A stretch of DNA of 64,000 bases. Origin: Candidatus Geothermincolia bacterium (lineage in GTDB: Bacteria > Actinomycetota > Geothermincolia > Fen-727 > Anoxymicrobiaceae). The notes beneath the pieces were generated by a model. That model ran no database searches, had not been told where the DNA came from, and was given only the letters and a program-made list of their open reading frames with translations. Position 1 is the stretch's first letter; every line of letters starts with the position of its first letter. This document shows positions 57,157 to 63,695 of the stretch, piece by piece. Location of the stretch: contig JBBQKJ010000009.1 in assembly GCA_038326775.1 (NCBI GenBank), positions 9,457 to 73,456 of the forward strand, written 5' to 3'. The position numbers were made by a program, and so were the translations under genes.

Positions 57157-58968
57157 TCAGGGAGCGGCCCCGACGCGGATCTTGACCGCGCTGCCGGCGG
57201 GGGCTTCGCTCAGCGCCGGCGGGTCCTGGCTGATGACCCGCCCCACCCTGGTCGGGTCGGGCGTTGCTTCGCTGATGACCGTGACCGTGAACCCGGCGCT
57301 CACAAGGGCGTTCTCCGCGTCGGCCTTCAACATGCTGACCACGTCGGGCACCTTTGGCGGCGTCTTGGCCACGGTTATGGTCACCTTGGACCCCTTGGGC
57401 GCGGAGTCGCCGCCGGCCGGGGACTGCGAGATGACGCTGCCCTCGGGCACGGTGCTGGAGGCCGCCGTCTGGACCTGCGCCTGCAGGCCCGCGTCAGAGA
57501 GCCTCTGGGTGGCGACTGCCTGGCTCGAACCGACGACATTGGGGACGGTGACCGTCTCCGGCCCCCTGCTGACGACGATGGAGACCGGACTGCCCTTCGA
57601 GGCCTGGGTGCCGGCCTGCGGGTCCTGGGACGAAACGGTCCCCTTGGCGACCGAGGTGCTGTACGCCTCGGTCACGTTCCCGAGCTCGAACCCGGCAGCC
57701 TTCAGTGCACCTTCGGCGTCCGTCCGGGACTGGCCGACGACCTCGGGTACCGCGCCGAGGTTCGGGCCCTTGCTCACCACCACCTCCACCGTTTCGCCCT
57801 TGTCGATTCTGGTCCCCGGGCCCGGGGACTGGCTGATCACGATGTCTTTGGGCTTTTCCGGGTCTATCACCGTTTTGGCGACCTTCATCTTGAGCCCGGC
57901 GTCAGCCAGGACCTGCTGGGCCTCGGTGACGGATTTTCCCATGATGCTCGGGACCGACACGCCCCCGGTGTTCCGCACGATGGCCCAGACGCCCACGCCG
58001 ATACCGGCGAGGATGACTATCACGATGATGGAGATCCAGAGCCAGGCGAGCGAGCGCCTTCCAGGTGGAGCGCCCGCGACCGCGGGATATGCCCGGGTGG
58101 CGCCCGGCGCCGCTTCGTCCCTGGGGAGCACCGGGGTCGCGTACACAGGGGTGCCCTCGAGGGAGCGCTCGAGGTCTCGGCGCATTTCCACGGCGTTCTG
58201 GTAGCGGTTCTGGGGGTTCTTGGCGAGGGCTTTCATGACCACGGCTTCGAGCCCCGGCGAGACATCGGGGTTGATCATCGAGGGAGGAAGGGGGTCTTCC
58301 CGCACGTGTTTGTAGGCTATGGAAACGGGGTTGTCGCCGTCGAAGGGCACCCTGCCCGTGAGCATCTCGTAGAGCACGACCCCGAGAGAGTAGAGGTCGG
58401 AACGCGGGTCAGCGGCGCGGCCCTGGGCCTGTTCGGGGCTTATGTACTGGGCGGTGCCCATGATGGTCCCGGTCTGGGTCATGGCCGAGCCGCCCGCGGT
58501 GCGGGCGATGCCGAAGTCCATGACCTTGGTCTGGTTGTCGTAGGTGACAATGGTGTTCTGCGGCTTTATGTCGCGGTGAACGATGCCCTGGGCGTGGGCC
58601 GCCTCCAGCGCCAGGCAGATGGACATGGCGATCTCGACCGCCCTTTCAGGGAGAAGGGGGCCGCCCTGGAGGATGATGTCCTTGAGGTCGCGCCCCTGGA
58701 CGTATTCCATCACCAGGTAGTAGGTGCCGTCCTCGATGCCCCAGTCGTAGACGTTGACGATATTGGTCTGGTTGAGGTTGGCGGCGGCCTGCGCCTCCTG
58801 GCGGAACCTGGCGATGAACACCTCGTCTTTGGCGAACTGGGGGTGGAGTAGCTTCACCGCGACTGTGCGGCCGAGCAGGTTGTCGCTGGCCCTGTAGACA
58901 TCGGCCATGCCGCCCGTGCCGATCAACTGTTCGAGCTCATACCGGGAATTCAGTATCCTGCCGACCAT
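57157..58968 (-). CDS. pknB: PASTA-domain Ser/Thr protein kinase
   Basis: GTGGMADVY, VAVK, HRDIKPQN, DFGIAR, SPEQA; one TM; four PASTA repeats. Confidence 0.95.
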   Translation of the reverse strand: MVGRILNSRYELEQLIGTGGMADVYRASDNLLGRTVAVKLLHPQFAKDEVFIARFRQEAQAAANLNQTNIVNVYDWGIEDGTYYLVMEYVQGRDLKDIILQGGPLLPERAVEIAMSICLALEAAHAQGIVHRDIKPQNTIVTYDNQTKVMDFGIARTAGGSAMTQTGTIMGTAQYISPEQAQGRAADPRSDLYSLGVVLYEMLTGRVPFDGDNPVSIAYKHVREDPLPPSMINPDVSPGLEAVVMKALAKNPQNRYQNAVEMRRDLERSLEGTPVYATPVLPRDEAAPGATRAYPAVAGAPPGRRSLAWLWISIIVIVILAGIGVGVWAIVRNTGGVSVPSIMGKSVTEAQQVLADAGLKMKVAKTVIDPEKPKDIVISQSPGPGTRIDKGETVEVVVSKGPNLGAVPEVVGQSRTDAEGALKAAGFELGNVTEAYSTSVAKGTVSSQDPQAGTQASKGSPVSIVVSRGPETVTVPNVVGSSQAVATQRLSDAGLQAQVQTAASSTVPEGSVISQSPAGGDSAPKGSKVTITVAKTPPKVPDVVSMLKADAENALVSAGFTVTVISEATPDPTRVGRVISQDPPALSEAPAGSAVKIRVGAAP

Positions 58969-59010
58969 AGATAGACTTACCCCTTTGAAGTTGATTTCCG
59001 GATTATACTT

Positions 59011-59520
59011 TCACCTGGCCTCGAAAAATACCTTCGCCGGGCTGCCGCAGACGGGGCATTTTTCCGGGATGCTGCCGTCGGTGACGTACCCGCACACCTC
59101 GCAGATGTAGTAAGTGGGGTCTTCCTCGGCGAGAAGGTGCTCCAGGGCTTTTTCGTAGAGCTTGGCGTGGACCTCCTCCACATCGCGGGCCCAGGTTAAC
59201 ATCCGGGCGGTGTTCTCGTCTCCGGCCTCTTCGGCCCTGGCTATGAAGTCGCTGTAGTGCACCTGGGCGATCCTGGTCTCCCTCGCGAACGATTCGGACA
59301 GGTTGGTCTCGGTATCCTTGACCTCGCCCAGCAGCCGCAGGTTGTTGCGACCGTGTATCGCCTCAGACTCCGCTATGGCGCGAAAAAGCTTTGCGACGCT
59401 GGCGTAATCCTCCTTGTCCGCGTGTTCCGCGTAGACCTTTAGTCTGACGCTGGCCTTGGCCTCGCCCTCGTATGCCTGGTGCAGACCGTCCTGAATCGAT
59501 TCATCCGCCAAATCATTCAC
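59011..59520 (-). CDS. Rubrerythrin
   Basis: Di-iron ExxH motifs (EAIH, EEVH) and C-terminal rubredoxin CEVC...CPVC. Confidence 0.92.
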   Translation of the reverse strand: MNDLADESIQDGLHQAYEGEAKASVRLKVYAEHADKEDYASVAKLFRAIAESEAIHGRNNLRLLGEVKDTETNLSESFARETRIAQVHYSDFIARAEEAGDENTARMLTWARDVEEVHAKLYEKALEHLLAEEDPTYYICEVCGYVTDGSIPEKCPVCGSPAKVFFEAR

Positions 59521-59540
59521 CCCCGAGCAGTCTTATACGG

Positions 59541-59774
59541 TCAATCCTTCTTTTTCCTGACGTAAACCTTTATCTCGCCCTGGTCCTCCTCGACGGCGAC
59601 GCAATCGTTGCCGGTCTTGTCGCACCAGGCGCGCATGTCGCTCTTGATGCCTGCGTCGTCGGCGATGACCTCGAGGACCTCTCCCGCGGAAAGCTCCTTG
59701 ATGGCCTGGGAGGTCTTGACGATTGGCATCGGGCAGTACAGCCCCACGCAGTCGATCGTGTGGTCCGCTTCCAT
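59541..59774 (-). CDS. tusA: TusA/SirA sulfur carrier
   Basis: IDCVGLYCPMP, LEVIADD, W.DKTGN. Confidence 0.92.
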   Translation of the reverse strand: MEADHTIDCVGLYCPMPIVKTSQAIKELSAGEVLEVIADDAGIKSDMRAWCDKTGNDCVAVEEDQGEIKVYVRKKKD

Positions 59775-59802
59775 GTCACACCTCCGTGGCGGGGCCCGAC
59801 CC

Positions 59803-60282
59803 CTATATGAACAGGTTTACCTTCGCGTCAGAGGCGATGCCAAGGTAGGTGGCGGCCCCGGCGACCTCCTCCACCTCGTCGATGAAGTCATCTTTACTCA
59901 GGCCCATCAACGCCATAGAGGTCGTGCAGGCGATGAACTTTACGCCCTGCTCCCTGGCGAGGGCTATCATCTCCTCGAGCGACGGCATCCGGTACGTCTT
60001 CATCATCGACTTCATGGCGCCGGTCCCCATGCCCAGCATGTTCATTTTGGACATCTTCAACCGCCGGGCGCTCCCGCGCTTCATGAGCCCCATCATCCAC
60101 TGCATGAAGCTCTTGCCGCCCCTGGCCACCCTCTTCTTCTTGATGACGCCGAGCCCCCAGAACGTGAAGAACATGGTGACGTCCATGCCCATGGAGGCGC
60201 CCGTGTTGGCGAGGTTGAACGCGGCCAGCGCCCGGTCCAGGTCGTCGCTGAACACGATAAGGGTCATCTTTTCTTCACTCAT
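59803..60282 (-). CDS. DsrE2-like (DsrE/DsrF/DsrH family) sulfurtransferase
   Basis: FSDDLDRA, MFFTFWGL, IACTTSM.LMG, GAATYL, NLFI. Confidence 0.9.
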   Translation of the reverse strand: MSEEKMTLIVFSDDLDRALAAFNLANTGASMGMDVTMFFTFWGLGVIKKKRVARGGKSFMQWMMGLMKRGSARRLKMSKMNMLGMGTGAMKSMMKTYRMPSLEEMIALAREQGVKFIACTTSMALMGLSKDDFIDEVEEVAGAATYLGIASDAKVNLFI

Positions 60283-60363
60283 GTCACCTCTCCTTGCTCC
60301 TCCGGCGGGTGGGTTGGGAATCGGGTGGCCGCTTTTCCGCCCGAGTGGAGGAGGCCGGCCACG

Positions 60364-60555
60364 TCAGCGCGGAGGCTCCCCGCAGGACGGGCAGGTCTCC
60401 ACCCCTTCCCGCACGGGCTTGCCACAGCGGACGCATTCGATTATCACCGTCTTGCAAGCCACACAGAAGACCGCCTCTTCCCGGACATCTTCTATCTCGA
60501 CGTCGCAGTAAGGGCAGTGGCACGCATCAACCCTTTCTTCGCCTGCTCCTCCCAT
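60364..60555 (-). CDS. Small Cys-rich double zinc-ribbon protein
   Basis: 63 aa with four CxxC pairs (CPYC, CVAC, CVRC, CPSC); starts 2 bp after the iscU stop with a GGAGG RBS. Confidence 0.75.
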   Translation of the reverse strand: MGGAGEERVDACHCPYCDVEIEDVREEAVFCVACKTVIIECVRCGKPVREGVETCPSCGEPPR

Positions 60556-60557
60556 GC

Positions 60558-60956
60558 TCAGCCCTCCTTCGCGGTCTTCTTGCTCTTGTAGTCCTCGATG
60601 GCGATGTGCAGCGCGTCCGCCCCCAGGTTGGAGCAGTGCATCTTGTTTTCGGGCAGCCCGCCGAGCTGCTCCGCGACGTCTCCGCGCGATATCTGAAGGG
60701 CCTCGTCGAGCGTCTTGCCCTTCGCCATCTCGCTCACCATGCTCGAGACCGCGATGGCGGCCCCGCACCCGAACGTCTTGAACTTGACGTCCTCGAGACG
60801 GTCGTCGTCCCCGACCTTGACGTAAAACGTCATCATGTCGCCGCAGACGGGGTTTCCGACCTCGCCTACCCCGTCAGCGTCCTCGATCTCGCCGACGTTG
60901 CGGGGGTTCATGAAGTGGTCCATGACCGTGTCGCTGTACTGCGCTATCTCAACCAC
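60558..60956 (-). CDS. iscU: Fe-S scaffold IscU/NifU-N (MisU-like)
   Basis: DHFMNPRNVG, GNPVCGD, FGCGAAIA, LPENKMHCSNL. Confidence 0.95.
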   Translation of the reverse strand: MVEIAQYSDTVMDHFMNPRNVGEIEDADGVGEVGNPVCGDMMTFYVKVGDDDRLEDVKFKTFGCGAAIAVSSMVSEMAKGKTLDEALQISRGDVAEQLGGLPENKMHCSNLGADALHIAIEDYKSKKTAKEG

Positions 60957-62130
60957 CTCCCTGCTTAAGGAACTTATCGTATAGCGGAGACATCTGCCGC
61001 AGCCTCTCCACTATTGGCGGCAGTGTCTCGATGACATAATCTACGTCCTCGGGCTTGTTGTCGAGCCCGAAGCTGAACAGCAGCGAGCCCTGTGCTATCT
61101 CCGCCGGGATTTCGCAGGCGGTAAGAACGTGCGAGCCCTTGAGCGCGCGCGAAGTGCAGGCTGAGCCGCTCGAGACCGCGATCCCCAGCTGGTCCAGGAA
61201 GAGAAGCATCCCCTCACCTTCTATGAACTCCACCACGAAGCTCGCGTTCCAGGGGAGCCGCTGGTCGGGATGGCCCGTGGCGGTAAGCCTGGGAATGGCC
61301 GCCGGCAGCCTCTCGAGCAGTGCCTGGCTCATAACGCGGAGGTGTTCGGCCCGTCGCTCCATGTCCGTCACGGCGAGCTCGGCCGCTTTGCCCATACCCA
61401 CGATCCCCGGCATGTTCTCAGTGCCACCCCGCCGGCCGCCTTCCTGGACACCTCCGTCCAAGAGCGGCATCAGCCGCCGGCCTTTCTTTACCCAGAGGGC
61501 CCCGACGCCCTTGGGGCCGTAGAGAAGGTCGGAGGCGATCGACATGGCGTCGGCGCCGACGTCCTCGACATCGATCGGAACGCAACCGGCGGCGGCCACC
61601 GCGTCCGTATGGAACGGGATTCCCTTTTCGCCGGCCACCGCGGCTATCTGCCTGACCGGCTGGATAGTCCCGACCTCGCCGTTCGCGACCATCACCGAGA
61701 CCAGCACCGTTTCGGGCGTGATCGCGTCACGCACCGCCTCCGGGTCGACCATCCCGGAGGAGTCCACGGCGACCTCGGTGACCTCCATTCCGAACTTCTC
61801 CAGTGTCCTCGCGGCATGCAGCACCGAGAAGTGCTCAACCGCCGACACCACCACGTGGTTACCTTTCTTCCTGGCGGCCCAGGCGATGCCCTTGACCGCC
61901 AGGTTGTTGGCCTCGGTGCCGCCCGAGGTGAAGATTATCTCCTCGGGCCGGGCCTTGATGAGCGCGGCCACCTTCTCGCGCGCCTCATCGAGGGCCAGCC
62001 TGGCGACGTCTCCCCACCCGTGCAGGGAAGACGGGTTGCCGAAGCTCTCGGTGAAATACGGCCGCATCGCCTCCACGACCTCGTGGAGTACCGGGGTCGC
62101 CGCGTAGTGGTCCAGGTAGACTTCGGGCAT
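60949..62130 (-). CDS. iscS: IscS/NifS-like cysteine desulfurase homologue lacking the PLP lysine
   Basis: GNPSS.H, FTSGGTEANN, EH.SV, SSGSACTS present; the canonical SxHKxYGPKG reads ASDLLYGPKG. Confidence 0.9.
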   Translation of the reverse strand: MPEVYLDHYAATPVLHEVVEAMRPYFTESFGNPSSLHGWGDVARLALDEAREKVAALIKARPEEIIFTSGGTEANNLAVKGIAWAARKKGNHVVVSAVEHFSVLHAARTLEKFGMEVTEVAVDSSGMVDPEAVRDAITPETVLVSVMVANGEVGTIQPVRQIAAVAGEKGIPFHTDAVAAAGCVPIDVEDVGADAMSIASDLLYGPKGVGALWVKKGRRLMPLLDGGVQEGGRRGGTENMPGIVGMGKAAELAVTDMERRAEHLRVMSQALLERLPAAIPRLTATGHPDQRLPWNASFVVEFIEGEGMLLFLDQLGIAVSSGSACTSRALKGSHVLTACEIPAEIAQGSLLFSFGLDNKPEDVDYVIETLPPIVERLRQMSPLYDKFLKQGGG

Positions 62131-62151
62131 TCTTTTTCCTCCAGTCGACCG

Positions 62152-62844
62152 TCAAATGGAATCGAAGTAACCGGCCAGTGCGTCCTGGTCCAGCACCACC
62201 AGGTGCTTGTCCCGGGTCCCCATGATGCCCTCTTTCTTAAGCCGGCTCATAACCCGGGAGACTGTCTCCTCGGTGGAGCCGATGAGCCCGGAGATGTCGC
62301 GGTTCGTGAGCGGGGTGTCGAGCTTCTCGGCGCAGTTCTTGTAGATGCCTCGCTCCTGGTCCAGGGTCTTCATAAGGATGCAGGCCACCCTCTTCTCTAC
62401 CCTCTCGCCCGCGATGCAGCGCGCCTTCATGTACGAGGAGTCGAGTTTCTGCCCGACGAGCTTCAGCAGGTGTCTCTCGAAAGCCGGGTCGGCGGCGATG
62501 ACGGAGAGCAGGTCTTCCCTGGGCACTTTCCAGACCTGGGACTCTTTCCTGGCAACCGCGGAGAACGGGTAGTAGTCCTGGCCGTACGCCACCCCTTCCC
62601 CGAACACGTCCGAGGGGAAGATGAAGTGGAAGATATATACCTTGCCGTCACCGTGGACGACGTTGGCCTCGATGACCCCGGACTCGACGACGTAGAGGAA
62701 AGCGGCCTCATCGCCCTCGAAGAACACGAACTGACCCCGATCGAGGCTCTGAGAAGTGAACCGGTCCTTCAGCTTGCCCCTCAGGTCTTTCCTGGCCTGC
62801 GAGACAAAATCGTCAAGGACGTCATGTTTGACCACTGCTTCCAC
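62152..62844 (-). CDS. Crp/Fnr family transcriptional regulator
   Basis: cNMP-like domain (FFEGD, FGEG), VEKRVA, HTH LTNRDISGLIGSTEETVSR. Confidence 0.92.
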   Translation of the reverse strand: MEAVVKHDVLDDFVSQARKDLRGKLKDRFTSQSLDRGQFVFFEGDEAAFLYVVESGVIEANVVHGDGKVYIFHFIFPSDVFGEGVAYGQDYYPFSAVARKESQVWKVPREDLLSVIAADPAFERHLLKLVGQKLDSSYMKARCIAGERVEKRVACILMKTLDQERGIYKNCAEKLDTPLTNRDISGLIGSTEETVSRVMSRLKKEGIMGTRDKHLVVLDQDALAGYFDSI

Positions 62845-63014
62845 CTTTCCTCACCGGCACCCGCTGCCAACTGCCGTCTTCAGCATATTGTACAACCATC
62901 ACCCCACGCGTCGCGCTCCTGTTTTGCACCTAGCAGGTATCGTTATTCGTTATCGAGGCGCGAAATCATCTTTTCTACGCCGGTGGACGCCTTTAGCATG
63001 GAAGGCACGTTGAG

Positions 63015-63695
63015 CTAGCGGCCCGCAAGCCTGCGCTGGACCGCCTCTCCCTCCAGCTCCTTCAAGGCGGTGGAGGCCACCCACCGCGCCGCCCTGGTGT
63101 CGAGTGCCAGTATCTCCTTCGCGGTCCGGATGGCCAGCCGGTTCAAGGCCACGTTCCTCTTACCTATCTGCCGGAGTGCCCAGTTGACGGCCTTCTTCAC
63201 GAAGTTTCGCTCGTCGCTGGCCTCCCTCTTGATGAGGGGAAGGAACTCCGCGATGCGCTCGTCGGTAGCCCCCTTGTCGCTCCACGCGAGGCGGGCCATC
63301 AGCGCGAAGGCGGCGCGCTTGACGAACTCCTCGGGGCGGGCGCTCCACTCGAAGCACTTGTCATAAGCGAACGGGGTCAGCCAGAAGAGGTTCATGCAGA
63401 CCTGGTCGCAGACGTCCCAGGAGTCAAAGCCGGCTACCCACGCCTCCATCTGCCGCTCTGTCACCATCCCGGGGTCGTCAACCATGCCGGCAAGGATTCG
63501 CGCCTCGTGAACGCCAGAGTCCCAGAGCTCCAGGGCGAGTCCGTGGTCTCTTCCGGCCTCCTTCGCAAGCTTCCTCAGGTTTGCGATTGAGACACCCAGC
63601 GTCTTTTCGGGGTTGATGCCGTAGCGAGCCATGCCCTCGAGGGCTTTTGGGTCCGAGAGGGCCTCAAGCCGGTTCATGGTTTCACCGCATTCCAC
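63015..63695 (-). CDS. DNA alkylation repair protein (AlkD-like HEAT fold)
   Basis: LALELW, HEARILA, DSWDVCDQ, DERNFVKKAVNWALRQIGKRN. Confidence 0.9.
   Translation of the reverse strand: MECGETMNRLEALSDPKALEGMARYGINPEKTLGVSIANLRKLAKEAGRDHGLALELWDSGVHEARILAGMVDDPGMVTERQMEAWVAGFDSWDVCDQVCMNLFWLTPFAYDKCFEWSARPEEFVKRAAFALMARLAWSDKGATDERIAEFLPLIKREASDERNFVKKAVNWALRQIGKRNVALNRLAIRTAKEILALDTRAARWVASTALKELEGEAVQRRLAGR

Follow-up and report, generated by a model that had tools for sequence, protein, structure and literature searches.

Identification of an IscS homologue without the Schiff-base lysine

The window analyzed here is a stretch of 64,000 nucleotides from a Candidatus Geothermincolia bacterium (GenBank assembly GCA_038326775.1, contig JBBQKJ010000009.1, positions 9,457 to 73,456). 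Its minus strand carries a gene, here called iscS*, that encodes a homologue of type-I cysteine desulfurases without the lysine that binds pyridoxal phosphate (PLP) as a Schiff base. It is followed by genes for the iron-sulfur (Fe-S) scaffold IscU, a zinc-ribbon protein, two sulfur carriers of the DsrE and TusA families, and a rubrerythrin. On balance, we favor the view that iscS* is a functional, conserved paralogue of the IscS/NifS/MisS-type desulfurases that would be PLP-free and desulfurase-dead, act as a partner of IscU, and probably receive its sulfur via TusA/DsrE2. The gene and the codons on which this view turns are listed below.

60949..62130, minus strand: iscS*, type-I cysteine-desulfurase homologue without the Schiff-base Lys, 393 amino acids (open reading frame; Pfam, PDB, and NCBIfam matches)
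62008..62010, minus strand: codon of Asp41, in the column of Escherichia coli Trp45, the main TusA contact
61678..61680, minus strand: codon of Gly151, aligned with the pocket residue Asn155 of E. coli
61594..61596, minus strand: codon of Ala179 (DAVA for DAxQ, in HTDAVAA), in the column of E. coli Gln183
61525..61530, minus strand: codons of Asp201 (gac, 61530-61528) and Leu202 (ctt, 61527-61525), aligned by MAFFT with His205 and Lys206 of E. coli, respectively
61156..61158, minus strand: codon of Cys325 (tgc, 61158-61156; SSGSACTS), the retained mobile-loop Cys, in the column of E. coli Cys328
61078..61080, minus strand: codon of Leu351, aligned with Arg354 of E. coli, the substrate-carboxylate binder

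Residues 4-366 of iscS* match Pfam Aminotran_5 (PF00266, 4.6e-75), and full-length matches were found in the PDB to 9wep (2.4e-132), Archaeoglobus fulgidus IscS2 (4eb5, 3.6e-112), and E. coli IscS (6.3e-79). Pfam, PDB, and the alignment thus give the protein both the aminotransferase class-V homology and the loop Cys that mark type-I desulfurases. Its score against the NCBIfam NifS family (TIGR03402) is 488.6 bits, below the cut-off of 530.75, and that against the IscS family (TIGR02006) is 359.8, where the cut-off of 643.2 is not reached.

Over the active-site motif, the minus-strand codons are atg tcg atc gcc tcc gac ctt ctc tac ggc ccc aag ggc. ASDLLYGPKG thus replaces SxHKxxGPKG, with Asp201 and Leu202 standing for His-Lys. 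This DNA and the alignment with E. coli IscS (reference sequence taken from NC_000913) confirm what a preliminary description of the locus had read from the sequence, namely ASDLLYGPKG with the CTT codon of Leu202 at 61525-61527 and DAVA for DAxQ; the strand has to be corrected, as the gene lies on the minus strand. The same description had called the loop Cys in SSGSACTS, the His of EH.SV, and the reading frame intact. We find Cys325 in place, VEHFSV with His100 intact, and zero internal stops in the frame 60949..62130.

Conservation of the altered residues

The closest homologues, defined as the best 120 among 5.8 billion clustered proteins, are 68-100% identical to iscS* and 386-419 amino acids long; where names are given, they are Actinomycetota, "Candidatus Geothermincolia," or "Candidatus Anoxymicrobiaceae." Asp occupies position 201 in 120/120 of them and Lys occupies position 202 in 0/120, the residues at the latter being Leu (64), Met (45), Ile (4), Arg (3), Gln (3), and Ala (1). 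Ala179, Gly151, and Leu351 are each fixed in all 120. Within the class, 33 of 41 genomes (this genome included) have an orthologue with 65-100% identity, and the Lys-less signature was present in every one of the 20 orthologues from the relatives' loci that were examined (20 of 32). All 33 orthologue-bearing genomes also hold a second copy with 43-53% identity, in which the Lys was read only for this genome's copy. Cys325 is invariant in alignments of 21 (21/21) and 48 (48/48) sequences.

Contigs from three studies gave the same reading of the DNA. In runs of two of these studies, which may be the sources of the sequence, a single contig spans the entire 3.9-kb region with 0 differences, and a 245-nucleotide contig from the third study (61312-61556) spans the motif codons, again with 0 differences. 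Contigs from an RNA library (run X19) resemble the whole cluster at ~90-95% and bridge its gene junctions; they come from a relative, and we do not take them as proof that the genes are transcribed or share one transcript.

The proposal that iscS* reflects an error of sequencing or assembly, or is a strain-specific pseudogene in decay, has practically no chance of being correct, because contigs of three studies agree on Leu, the frame is intact, the signature is fixed in 120/120 homologues down to 68% identity and in 20/20 relatives, and 76 of 82 family-conserved columns are retained (see below). The argument of the preliminary description against sequencing error therefore stands, and the strain-specific decay that it had considered is countered by close orthologues that all do without the Lys.

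Remodeling of the PLP and substrate pocket

We next consider the pocket as a whole. Among the best 150 matches to iscS* in 1.84 billion cluster representatives, the Schiff-base column holds Lys in 125, another residue in 24, and a gap in 1. We compared 123 Lys-bearing rows (122 representatives of 330-560 amino acids plus this genome's paralogue) with 12 rows of the clade to which iscS* belongs. Eighty-two columns are at least 85% conserved in the Lys-bearing rows; the iscS* clade retains 76 of these and alters exactly six, which in E. coli numbering are Thr12 to Ala, Asn155 to Gly, Gln183 to Ala, His205 to Asp, Lys206 to Leu/Met/Ile, and Arg354 to Leu. His205 presumably contacts the PLP phosphate. 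Four of the six positions (Asn155, Gln183, Lys206, and Arg354) are documented PLP- or substrate-pocket residues. Passages of PMC9978102 describe Lys206 of E. coli IscS as forming the internal aldimine (Schiff base) with PLP, Gln183 as bonding the PLP phenolate oxygen O3′, and Asn155 and Arg354 as lining the pocket, with the substrate carboxylate held by Arg354. The same passages give the Q183E and K206A variants zero desulfurase activity.

Thus, the whole PLP and cysteine pocket is remodeled, beyond the Lys alone. Because the Schiff-base Lys and the neighboring contacts to PLP and cysteine are gone, desulfurase activity is expected to be lost, and we infer from the residue roles and the A. fulgidus precedent that iscS* would be unable to make persulfide from cysteine. 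The preliminary description had already regarded the protein as probably desulfurase-dead; altered positions that it had not listed, Thr12, Asn155, and Arg354, together with an invariant Asp at the TusA contact, lend this further support. Taken with its conservation, it is very probable that iscS* is desulfurase-dead and under selection.

Five residues are fixed in the iscS* clade but not in the Lys-bearing relatives: Tyr9, Phe101, Trp294, Arg328, and Asp41. Phe101 adjoins His100, and Arg328 lies three residues past Cys325. The preliminary description had also raised the possibility that another Lys, such as that of GPK, takes the Schiff-base place. The alignments speak against this, as Leu202 stands in the Lys206 column and the GPK Lys (Lys207) is equally conserved in the canonical, Lys206-bearing enzymes and present in A. 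fulgidus IscS2 too. Lys331 of the loop was considered as a replacement lysine specific to Lys-less proteins and rejected, since the Lys-bearing 9wep protein has the same Lys.

The nearest solved structures (9wep, 9wer, 9wew, 9wf8, 9wfb, 9wfe, and 9wfy) are of a 406-amino acid Lys-bearing desulfurase and six variants. In the variant 9wfy, a Lys-to-Leu change is accompanied by changes in the DAxQ and NNE motifs, and the same positions differ naturally in iscS*. A search of the open-access literature found no paper that mentions 9WEP.

Distribution and phylogeny of Lys-less IscS proteins

Among uncultivated anaerobic bacteria, Lys-less IscS proteins make up a large family with strong sequence conservation, which is widespread across phyla and extends to archaea. 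The 24 Lys-less representatives have varied pairs at the His-Lys positions (NQ, QQ, HR, HT, ND, GR, and others), and 16 of them have Ala for Gln183. Named Lys-less clusters come from a "Proteobacteria"/BMS3Abin14 metagenome-assembled genome (MAG), Nitrospirae, Latescibacteria, Gemmatimonadota, Zixibacteria, and Odinarchaeota, and all are publicly annotated as cysteine desulfurase. For these lineages, genome-based inferences that move from this annotation to cysteine-dependent Fe-S assembly are overstated. The preliminary description had presented iscS* as a bacterial pseudo-enzyme; the absence of the Lys holds, but the protein is not an isolated oddity and belongs to this widespread family, which includes the A. 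fulgidus protein.

In a FastTree phylogeny of 156 rows, the iscS* clade (support 100) is nested in a 29-row group that has support 96 and in which 28 rows are Lys-less. Four other Lys-less rows form a clade of their own (support 100); they include P0158, whose best match is A. fulgidus IscS2 (1.9e-128). The two Lys-less groups are likewise parted in a quick IQ-TREE tree of 61 rows from which the six trait columns had been removed, by a branch with 97% support in the SH-like approximate likelihood ratio test (SH-aLRT). Four state changes are needed on this tree, and starred branches make at least three of these unavoidable. In the approximately unbiased (AU) test, which used the simpler model LG+G4 and left the singleton P0166 out of the constrained set, a tree holding the 25 Lys-less rows together was 1.61 log-likelihood units better than the free search (p-AU 0.512). 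A single origin of the bacterial and archaeal Lys-less forms is therefore not rejected by these alignments, and common descent would be favored because DsrE/TusA neighbors are shared (see below).

Two further rows stand out. P0122, which falls within the mostly Lys-less clade, retains His-Lys but has Ala in place of Gln183. P0166, with His-Met and with Gln for His104, is placed next to E. coli-type IscS; it could represent an error or a recent loss that occurred separately.

Organization of the gene cluster

The genes that accompany iscS* are as follows.

60558..60956, minus strand: iscU scaffold, 132 amino acids from GTG (start uncertain); Pfam NifU_N 8.3e-51, NCBIfam TIGR03419 (NifU_clost) 200.2 bits, above the cut-off of 187.9
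60364..60555, minus strand: Cys-rich double zinc-ribbon (DZR) protein, 63 amino acids; Pfam DZR / Zn_ribbon on a longer frame
59803..60282, minus strand: DsrE2-like sulfur-carrier protein, 159 amino acids; Pfam DrsE_2 6e-53, NCBIfam DsrE2 91.5 bits (cut-off 210, not reached)
59541..59774, minus strand: TusA-family sulfur carrier, 77 amino acids, CPMP motif; Pfam TusA 1.8e-25
59011..59520, minus strand: rubrerythrin; Pfam Rubrerythrin and RUBY_RBDX, syntenic in 20/20 relatives
62152..62844, minus strand: Crp/Fnr-family regulator immediately upstream of iscS*; Pfam cNMP_binding and HTH_Crp_2

The order iscS*-iscU-DZR-dsrE2-tusA-rbr is found at 20/20 of the relatives' loci, with a DsrE2 match in 19/20. 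The overlap of iscS* with iscU, noted in the preliminary description, amounts to 8 nucleotides provided that GTG 60956-60954 is the iscU start, in which case the stop codon of iscS* (TGA, 60951-60949) lies inside the iscU frame. This start is uncertain, as the GGAGG directly before the GTG is too near to serve it. In family-level relatives, the IscU match begins 4-5 nucleotides before the iscS* match ends.

In 21 sequences, Cys38, Asp40, Cys64, His107, and Cys108 of IscU are invariant, as are Cys9, Cys14, Asp40, Asp46, and Lys53 of TusA, whose Cys14 aligns with Cys19 of E. coli TusA. Cys119 of the DsrE2-like protein is also invariant. In the cluster, a TusA that carries the CPxP Cys is encoded together with a DsrE-family protein whose Cys is conserved. 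The DZR protein starts 3 nucleotides past the iscU stop, has nine invariant Cys across 21 orthologues, and is kept in 20/20 relatives; an NCBIfam scan assigned it to no family. The longer open reading frame listed at 60364..60768 overlaps iscU and is probably not real. In two other phyla, IscU and a zinc-ribbon domain form one reading frame, in an Aminicenantes MAG (L059:4931-6742) and in a Desulfatiglans MAG (L075:3522-4058); these natural fusions of genes that stand apart in the window tie the zinc-ribbon protein to the scaffold.

The Crp/Fnr regulator adjoins iscS* only within this family; in other families of the class, 2-4 kb separate the two. Instead of an FNR-type Cys cluster at the N terminus, it carries three Cys in the region that links its nucleotide-binding domain to its HTH domain. 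Directly downstream of rubrerythrin is an open reading frame for a 603-amino acid Ser/Thr kinase-like protein (57157-58968, minus strand) that is syntenic in same-family relatives. A promoter and terminator scan of 58800-63100 returned one promoter-like and five terminator-like sites, no more than in shuffled sequences and none usefully placed.

Linkage of Lys-less IscS to TusA and DsrE carriers

We scanned one genome per species with an alignment of 21 Lys-less proteins, obtained at least 600 matching stretches, and kept 80 loci. Neighbors on the same strand and within 3.5 kb were scored with profiles made from this class's operon proteins. Sixty-seven loci are Lys-bearing and 13 are Lys-less. 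TusA is adjacent at 9/13 Lys-less loci versus 0/67 Lys-bearing loci, a DsrE2-like protein at 6/13 versus 0/67, and a zinc-ribbon protein at 4/13 versus 0/67; TusA and/or a DsrE2-like protein accompany 10/13 versus 0/67. The corresponding figures for IscU are 5/13 and 32/67. The ten carrier-linked Lys-less loci bear the MAG labels Deltaproteobacteria, Aminicenantes, Saganbacteria, Anaerolineae, Nitrospira, Nitrospirota, Planctomycetia, Syntrophaceae, Actinomycetota, and Thorarchaeota, and the three without carriers are from Dehalococcoidia, from Desulfatiglans (IscU-DZR only), and from one cut contig.

A second sample, reached via locus L132, consisted of the 30 best loci in 251 genomes of one archaeal phylum. 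Nine of these loci are Lys-bearing; the other 21 are Lys-less, and all 21 have Asn-Asp as in A. fulgidus. TusA and/or a DsrE-like protein are adjacent at 20/21 Lys-less loci (TusA at 16) versus 0/9 Lys-bearing loci. IscU is adjacent at 20/21 and 8/9, respectively. Over both samples, TusA and/or DsrE neighbors are found at 30/34 Lys-less versus 0/76 Lys-bearing loci. Weaker TusA or DsrE2 matches were absent from these sampled loci up to E = 10, and Pfam upheld the family of 12/12 neighbors sampled. The samples are small and non-random (80 of at least 600 matches, and the 30 best loci of one archaeal phylum), and the counts show a linkage retained across very distant organisms, not many independent origins. 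Lys-less forms, and only they in these samples, travel with TusA and DsrE carriers, which provides a concrete, testable hypothesis of how they are fed with sulfur.

At L157, whose protein is identical to PDB 4eb5 in 381/382 residues, a DsrE-family gene (66.8 bits) lies directly upstream of iscS2-iscU, and no TusA was found within 1.5 kb. This dsrE-iscS2-iscU set is preceded (L157:1-288) by a Gate-domain membrane protein with a Pfam score of 27.4 bits, just under the cut-off of 29.6, that looks FeoB-like by eye. The IscU proteins beside Lys-less IscS at L142 and L146 (archaeal) and at L101 (a Thorarchaeota MAG) have a C-terminal extension of ~130 amino acids, which the IscU of the window does not have.

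Other Fe-S genes in the genome

The source assembly is 3.2 Mb in size and 94.9% complete. The preliminary description had thought it worthwhile to look for a second, canonical iscS or a suf system, and the genome does encode a canonical, Lys-bearing type-I desulfurase elsewhere (SGHKLYGPKG, DAVQ, and loop Cys), plus a SufB-like gene. The canonical paralogue scores 556 against NCBIfam NifS, above the cut-off of 530.75. It is located at the very start of its contig (G000:C2:84-1397, L002), and its downstream neighbor lies off the contig. In a same-genus relative, the canonical copy has no IscU neighbor and is found between B12-binding, URO-D-like, DnaE-like, and ImuB-like genes. An EF2568-type class-V enzyme is also encoded in the genome. 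Another IscU-like gene, the second (146 amino acids; G000:C3:3995-4342, L011), stands beside open reading frames for a Cys-rich 221-amino acid protein and a peroxiredoxin-like protein. The SufB-like gene (G000:C45, L009) adjoins an ABC-ATPase frame that is SufC-like by eye; no other suf genes are in view, and the pair has an SMS-like look. A search of this 94.9%-complete genome for the domains of A-type carriers (PF01521) and of HscB (PF07743) found neither.

Proposed sulfur route and alternative explanations

Passages of PMC2854127 report that Trp45 of E. coli IscS stacks on Phe58 of TusA and that the W45R substitution abolishes TusA binding. The Trp45 column holds Asp41 in 120/120 homologues of iscS* and mostly Arg or Gln in Lys-bearing relatives, and the Phe58 column of the operon TusA holds Lys53 in 21/21 sequences. 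A salt bridge between Asp41 and Lys53 is thus possible. From the gene linkage, the Asp41/Lys53 positions, and the homologues, we infer that iscS* would bind both IscU and TusA and that sulfur would flow from the carriers toward it.

We regard it as likely that iscS* is a partner of IscU in Fe-S assembly. Its C-terminal region, its mobile-loop Cys325, and presumably its fold are retained, and it would serve as a structural and thiol partner of a co-translated IscU. Cys325 may carry sulfur to the nascent cluster, ligate the cluster as in A. fulgidus IscS2, or do both. Persulfide would pass from Cys119 of the DsrE2-like protein and Cys14 of TusA to Cys325, and the carriers in turn might draw on sulfide, polysulfide, or the separate canonical desulfurase of the genome. 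The preliminary description had proposed a role as cluster ligand or as persulfide relay; the conserved linkage to TusA, DsrE2, and the zinc-ribbon protein, which it had missed, favors the latter. A supply of sulfur to iscS* through TusA/DsrE2 seems to us nearly an even prospect. The zinc-ribbon protein and rubrerythrin may be accessory redox, metal, or protection factors; that the former is an electron or metal donor is speculation.

In the broadest form of this proposal, Lys-less IscS, TusA, a DsrE-family carrier, and IscU, often with a zinc-ribbon protein, would constitute an ancient cysteine-independent Fe-S assembly line of anaerobic Bacteria of many phyla and of Archaea. Sulfane sulfur or sulfide would enter via DsrE/TusA and reach the loop Cys of a PLP-free IscS, which would relay it and ligate the cluster on IscU. 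We put this forward tentatively, as a possibility that is rather less than even. If true, it would explain the sulfur source of the A. fulgidus-type "dead" IscS.

Several observations weigh against our proposal. Four of the 34 Lys-less loci have neither TusA nor a DsrE-like gene, although two of the four are on short or cut contigs. IscU is adjacent in only 5/13 Lys-less loci of the bacterial sample, so that TusA, and not IscU, may be the core partner. If the Lys-less loci are one old lineage, their linkage may be a single inherited event and the counts non-independent. The Asp41-Lys53 pairing, as read from alignments, does not occur in the archaeal clade. According to passages of PMC2854127, TusA and IscU cannot occupy E. 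coli IscS together, so that any relay would be sequential or alternating, and free sulfide or the canonical paralogue could feed sulfur without TusA. Finally, iscS* keeps other PLP contacts, His100, Asp176, Thr72, and Thr237 (E. coli His104, Asp180, Thr76, and Thr243), and E. coli K206A is described in a passage of PMC9978102 as still retaining some PLP; non-covalent PLP or another ligand is therefore possible.

An alternative that we consider unlikely is that iscS* is a scaffold partner only, which stabilizes IscU and lends Cys325 as a ligand, while sulfur comes as free sulfide or from the canonical desulfurase and TusA/DsrE2 are merely co-regulated for another pathway, such as tRNA or cofactor thiolation. 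A passage of PMC7585200 puts this reading forward for A. fulgidus IscS2. The canonical desulfurase in this genome agrees with it, as do the L157 locus, where a DsrE-like gene occurs without TusA within 1.5 kb, and the sulfide use by minimal Fe-S systems that a passage of PMC12192291 documents for SMS. However, co-regulation explains poorly why carriers adjoin Lys-less loci (30/34) and not Lys-bearing loci (0/76) in many phyla, and Asp41 is invariant at the TusA-contact position.

A role as a sulfur-relay hub not dedicated to Fe-S assembly, in which iscS* would carry persulfide or act as an adaptor when TusA/DsrE proteins traffic sulfur for thiolation or sulfur metabolism, and in which IscU would be just one of several clients, is suggested by Lys-less loci of the bacterial sample where TusA occurs, alone or with DsrE2, and IscU is not a neighbor (L061, L081, L088, L114, and L127). 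We give it a small chance, given that IscU is adjacent at 20/20 loci of the class, with overlapping or abutting frames, and at 20/21 archaeal Lys-less loci, and that the IscU-DZR fusions bind the cluster to the scaffold. It is very improbable that iscS* remains an active desulfurase or another PLP enzyme by means of non-covalent PLP or a different lysine, for example Lys207 of GPK. The kept PLP-contact residues and the PLP in K206A speak for this possibility, but the inactivity of K206A and Q183E (PMC9978102, in the same passages) argues against it. So do the six pocket positions altered together, which include the substrate-binding Arg and place an Asp beside the Schiff-base position, and the occurrence of the GPK Lys in canonical enzymes and in the inactive A. 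fulgidus IscS2 alike.

Comparison with known systems

Lys-less IscS proteins are known from A. fulgidus and Methanosarcina acetivorans, and the new element here is their link to sulfur carriers. A. fulgidus IscS2 (PDB 4eb5, 4eb7, and 4hvk, and the Asp-to-Lys variant 4r5f) resembles iscS* in lacking the Schiff-base Lys, in the changes of Gln183 to Ala and Arg354 to Leu, in the loop Cys, and in the iscU neighbor. Passages of PMC7585200 and PMC13066941 report that it has no desulfurase activity and gives a Cys ligand to the IscU cluster. The two proteins differ in several ways. As the preliminary description had stated, the substitutions at the His-Lys positions are not the same, Asn-Asp in the alignment for A. 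fulgidus IscS2 versus Asp-Leu in iscS* (Asp-Leu/Met in its clade). Asn155 is kept in A. fulgidus IscS2 and is Gly in iscS*, whose identity to the archaeal clade is roughly 45%. The genes are arranged as iscS*-iscU-DZR-dsrE2-tusA-rbr here and as tusA-dsrE-iscS-iscU at most archaeal loci. IscS1 of the archaeon M. acetivorans is also reported, in a passage of PMC7585200, to be without the catalytic Lys and is suggested there to act like A. fulgidus IscS. The Lys-less, "dead" IscS has so far been discussed as an archaeal curiosity. The open-access literature yielded no description of a bacterial Lys-less IscS clade or of a tusA-dsrE-iscS-iscU module, nor anything on Geothermincolia that concerns this gene; work in subscription journals may bear on this novelty.

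Canonical type-I desulfurases (E. coli IscS 1p3w, NifS, and the 9wep protein) have 76 of the 82 conserved columns in common with iscS*, including His104, Asp180, and Cys328. They differ in possessing Lys206, His205, Gln183, Asn155, Arg354, and Thr12, and their loci in our samples have TusA/DsrE neighbors in 0/76 cases, unlike the Lys-less loci.

The MIS system (MisS-MisU), which a 2026 review calls the least studied system (PMC13066941, in a passage), is similar in its pair of a desulfurase-like and an IscU-like protein. No A-type carrier or HscB was found in this genome, which also holds a pair of SufC and SufB-like genes. In contrast to iscS*, which is without the catalytic residues and is accompanied by four further conserved genes, MisS is described as a cysteine desulfurase in passages of PMC13066941 and PMC12192291.

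The E. coli IscS-TusA relay (PDB 3lvj) likewise combines a loop-Cys protein of the IscS family with a TusA that has the CPxP Cys and conserved Asp residues, and a DsrE-family carrier with its conserved Cys is a further feature in common with TusA/DsrE sulfur trafficking. The contact made by Trp45 and Phe58 in E. coli corresponds to Asp41 and Lys53 in iscS* and the operon TusA. In E. coli, sulfur runs from active IscS to TusA, whereas here, if the proteins interact, it would flow toward iscS*/IscU, because iscS* is predicted to be unable to make persulfide itself.

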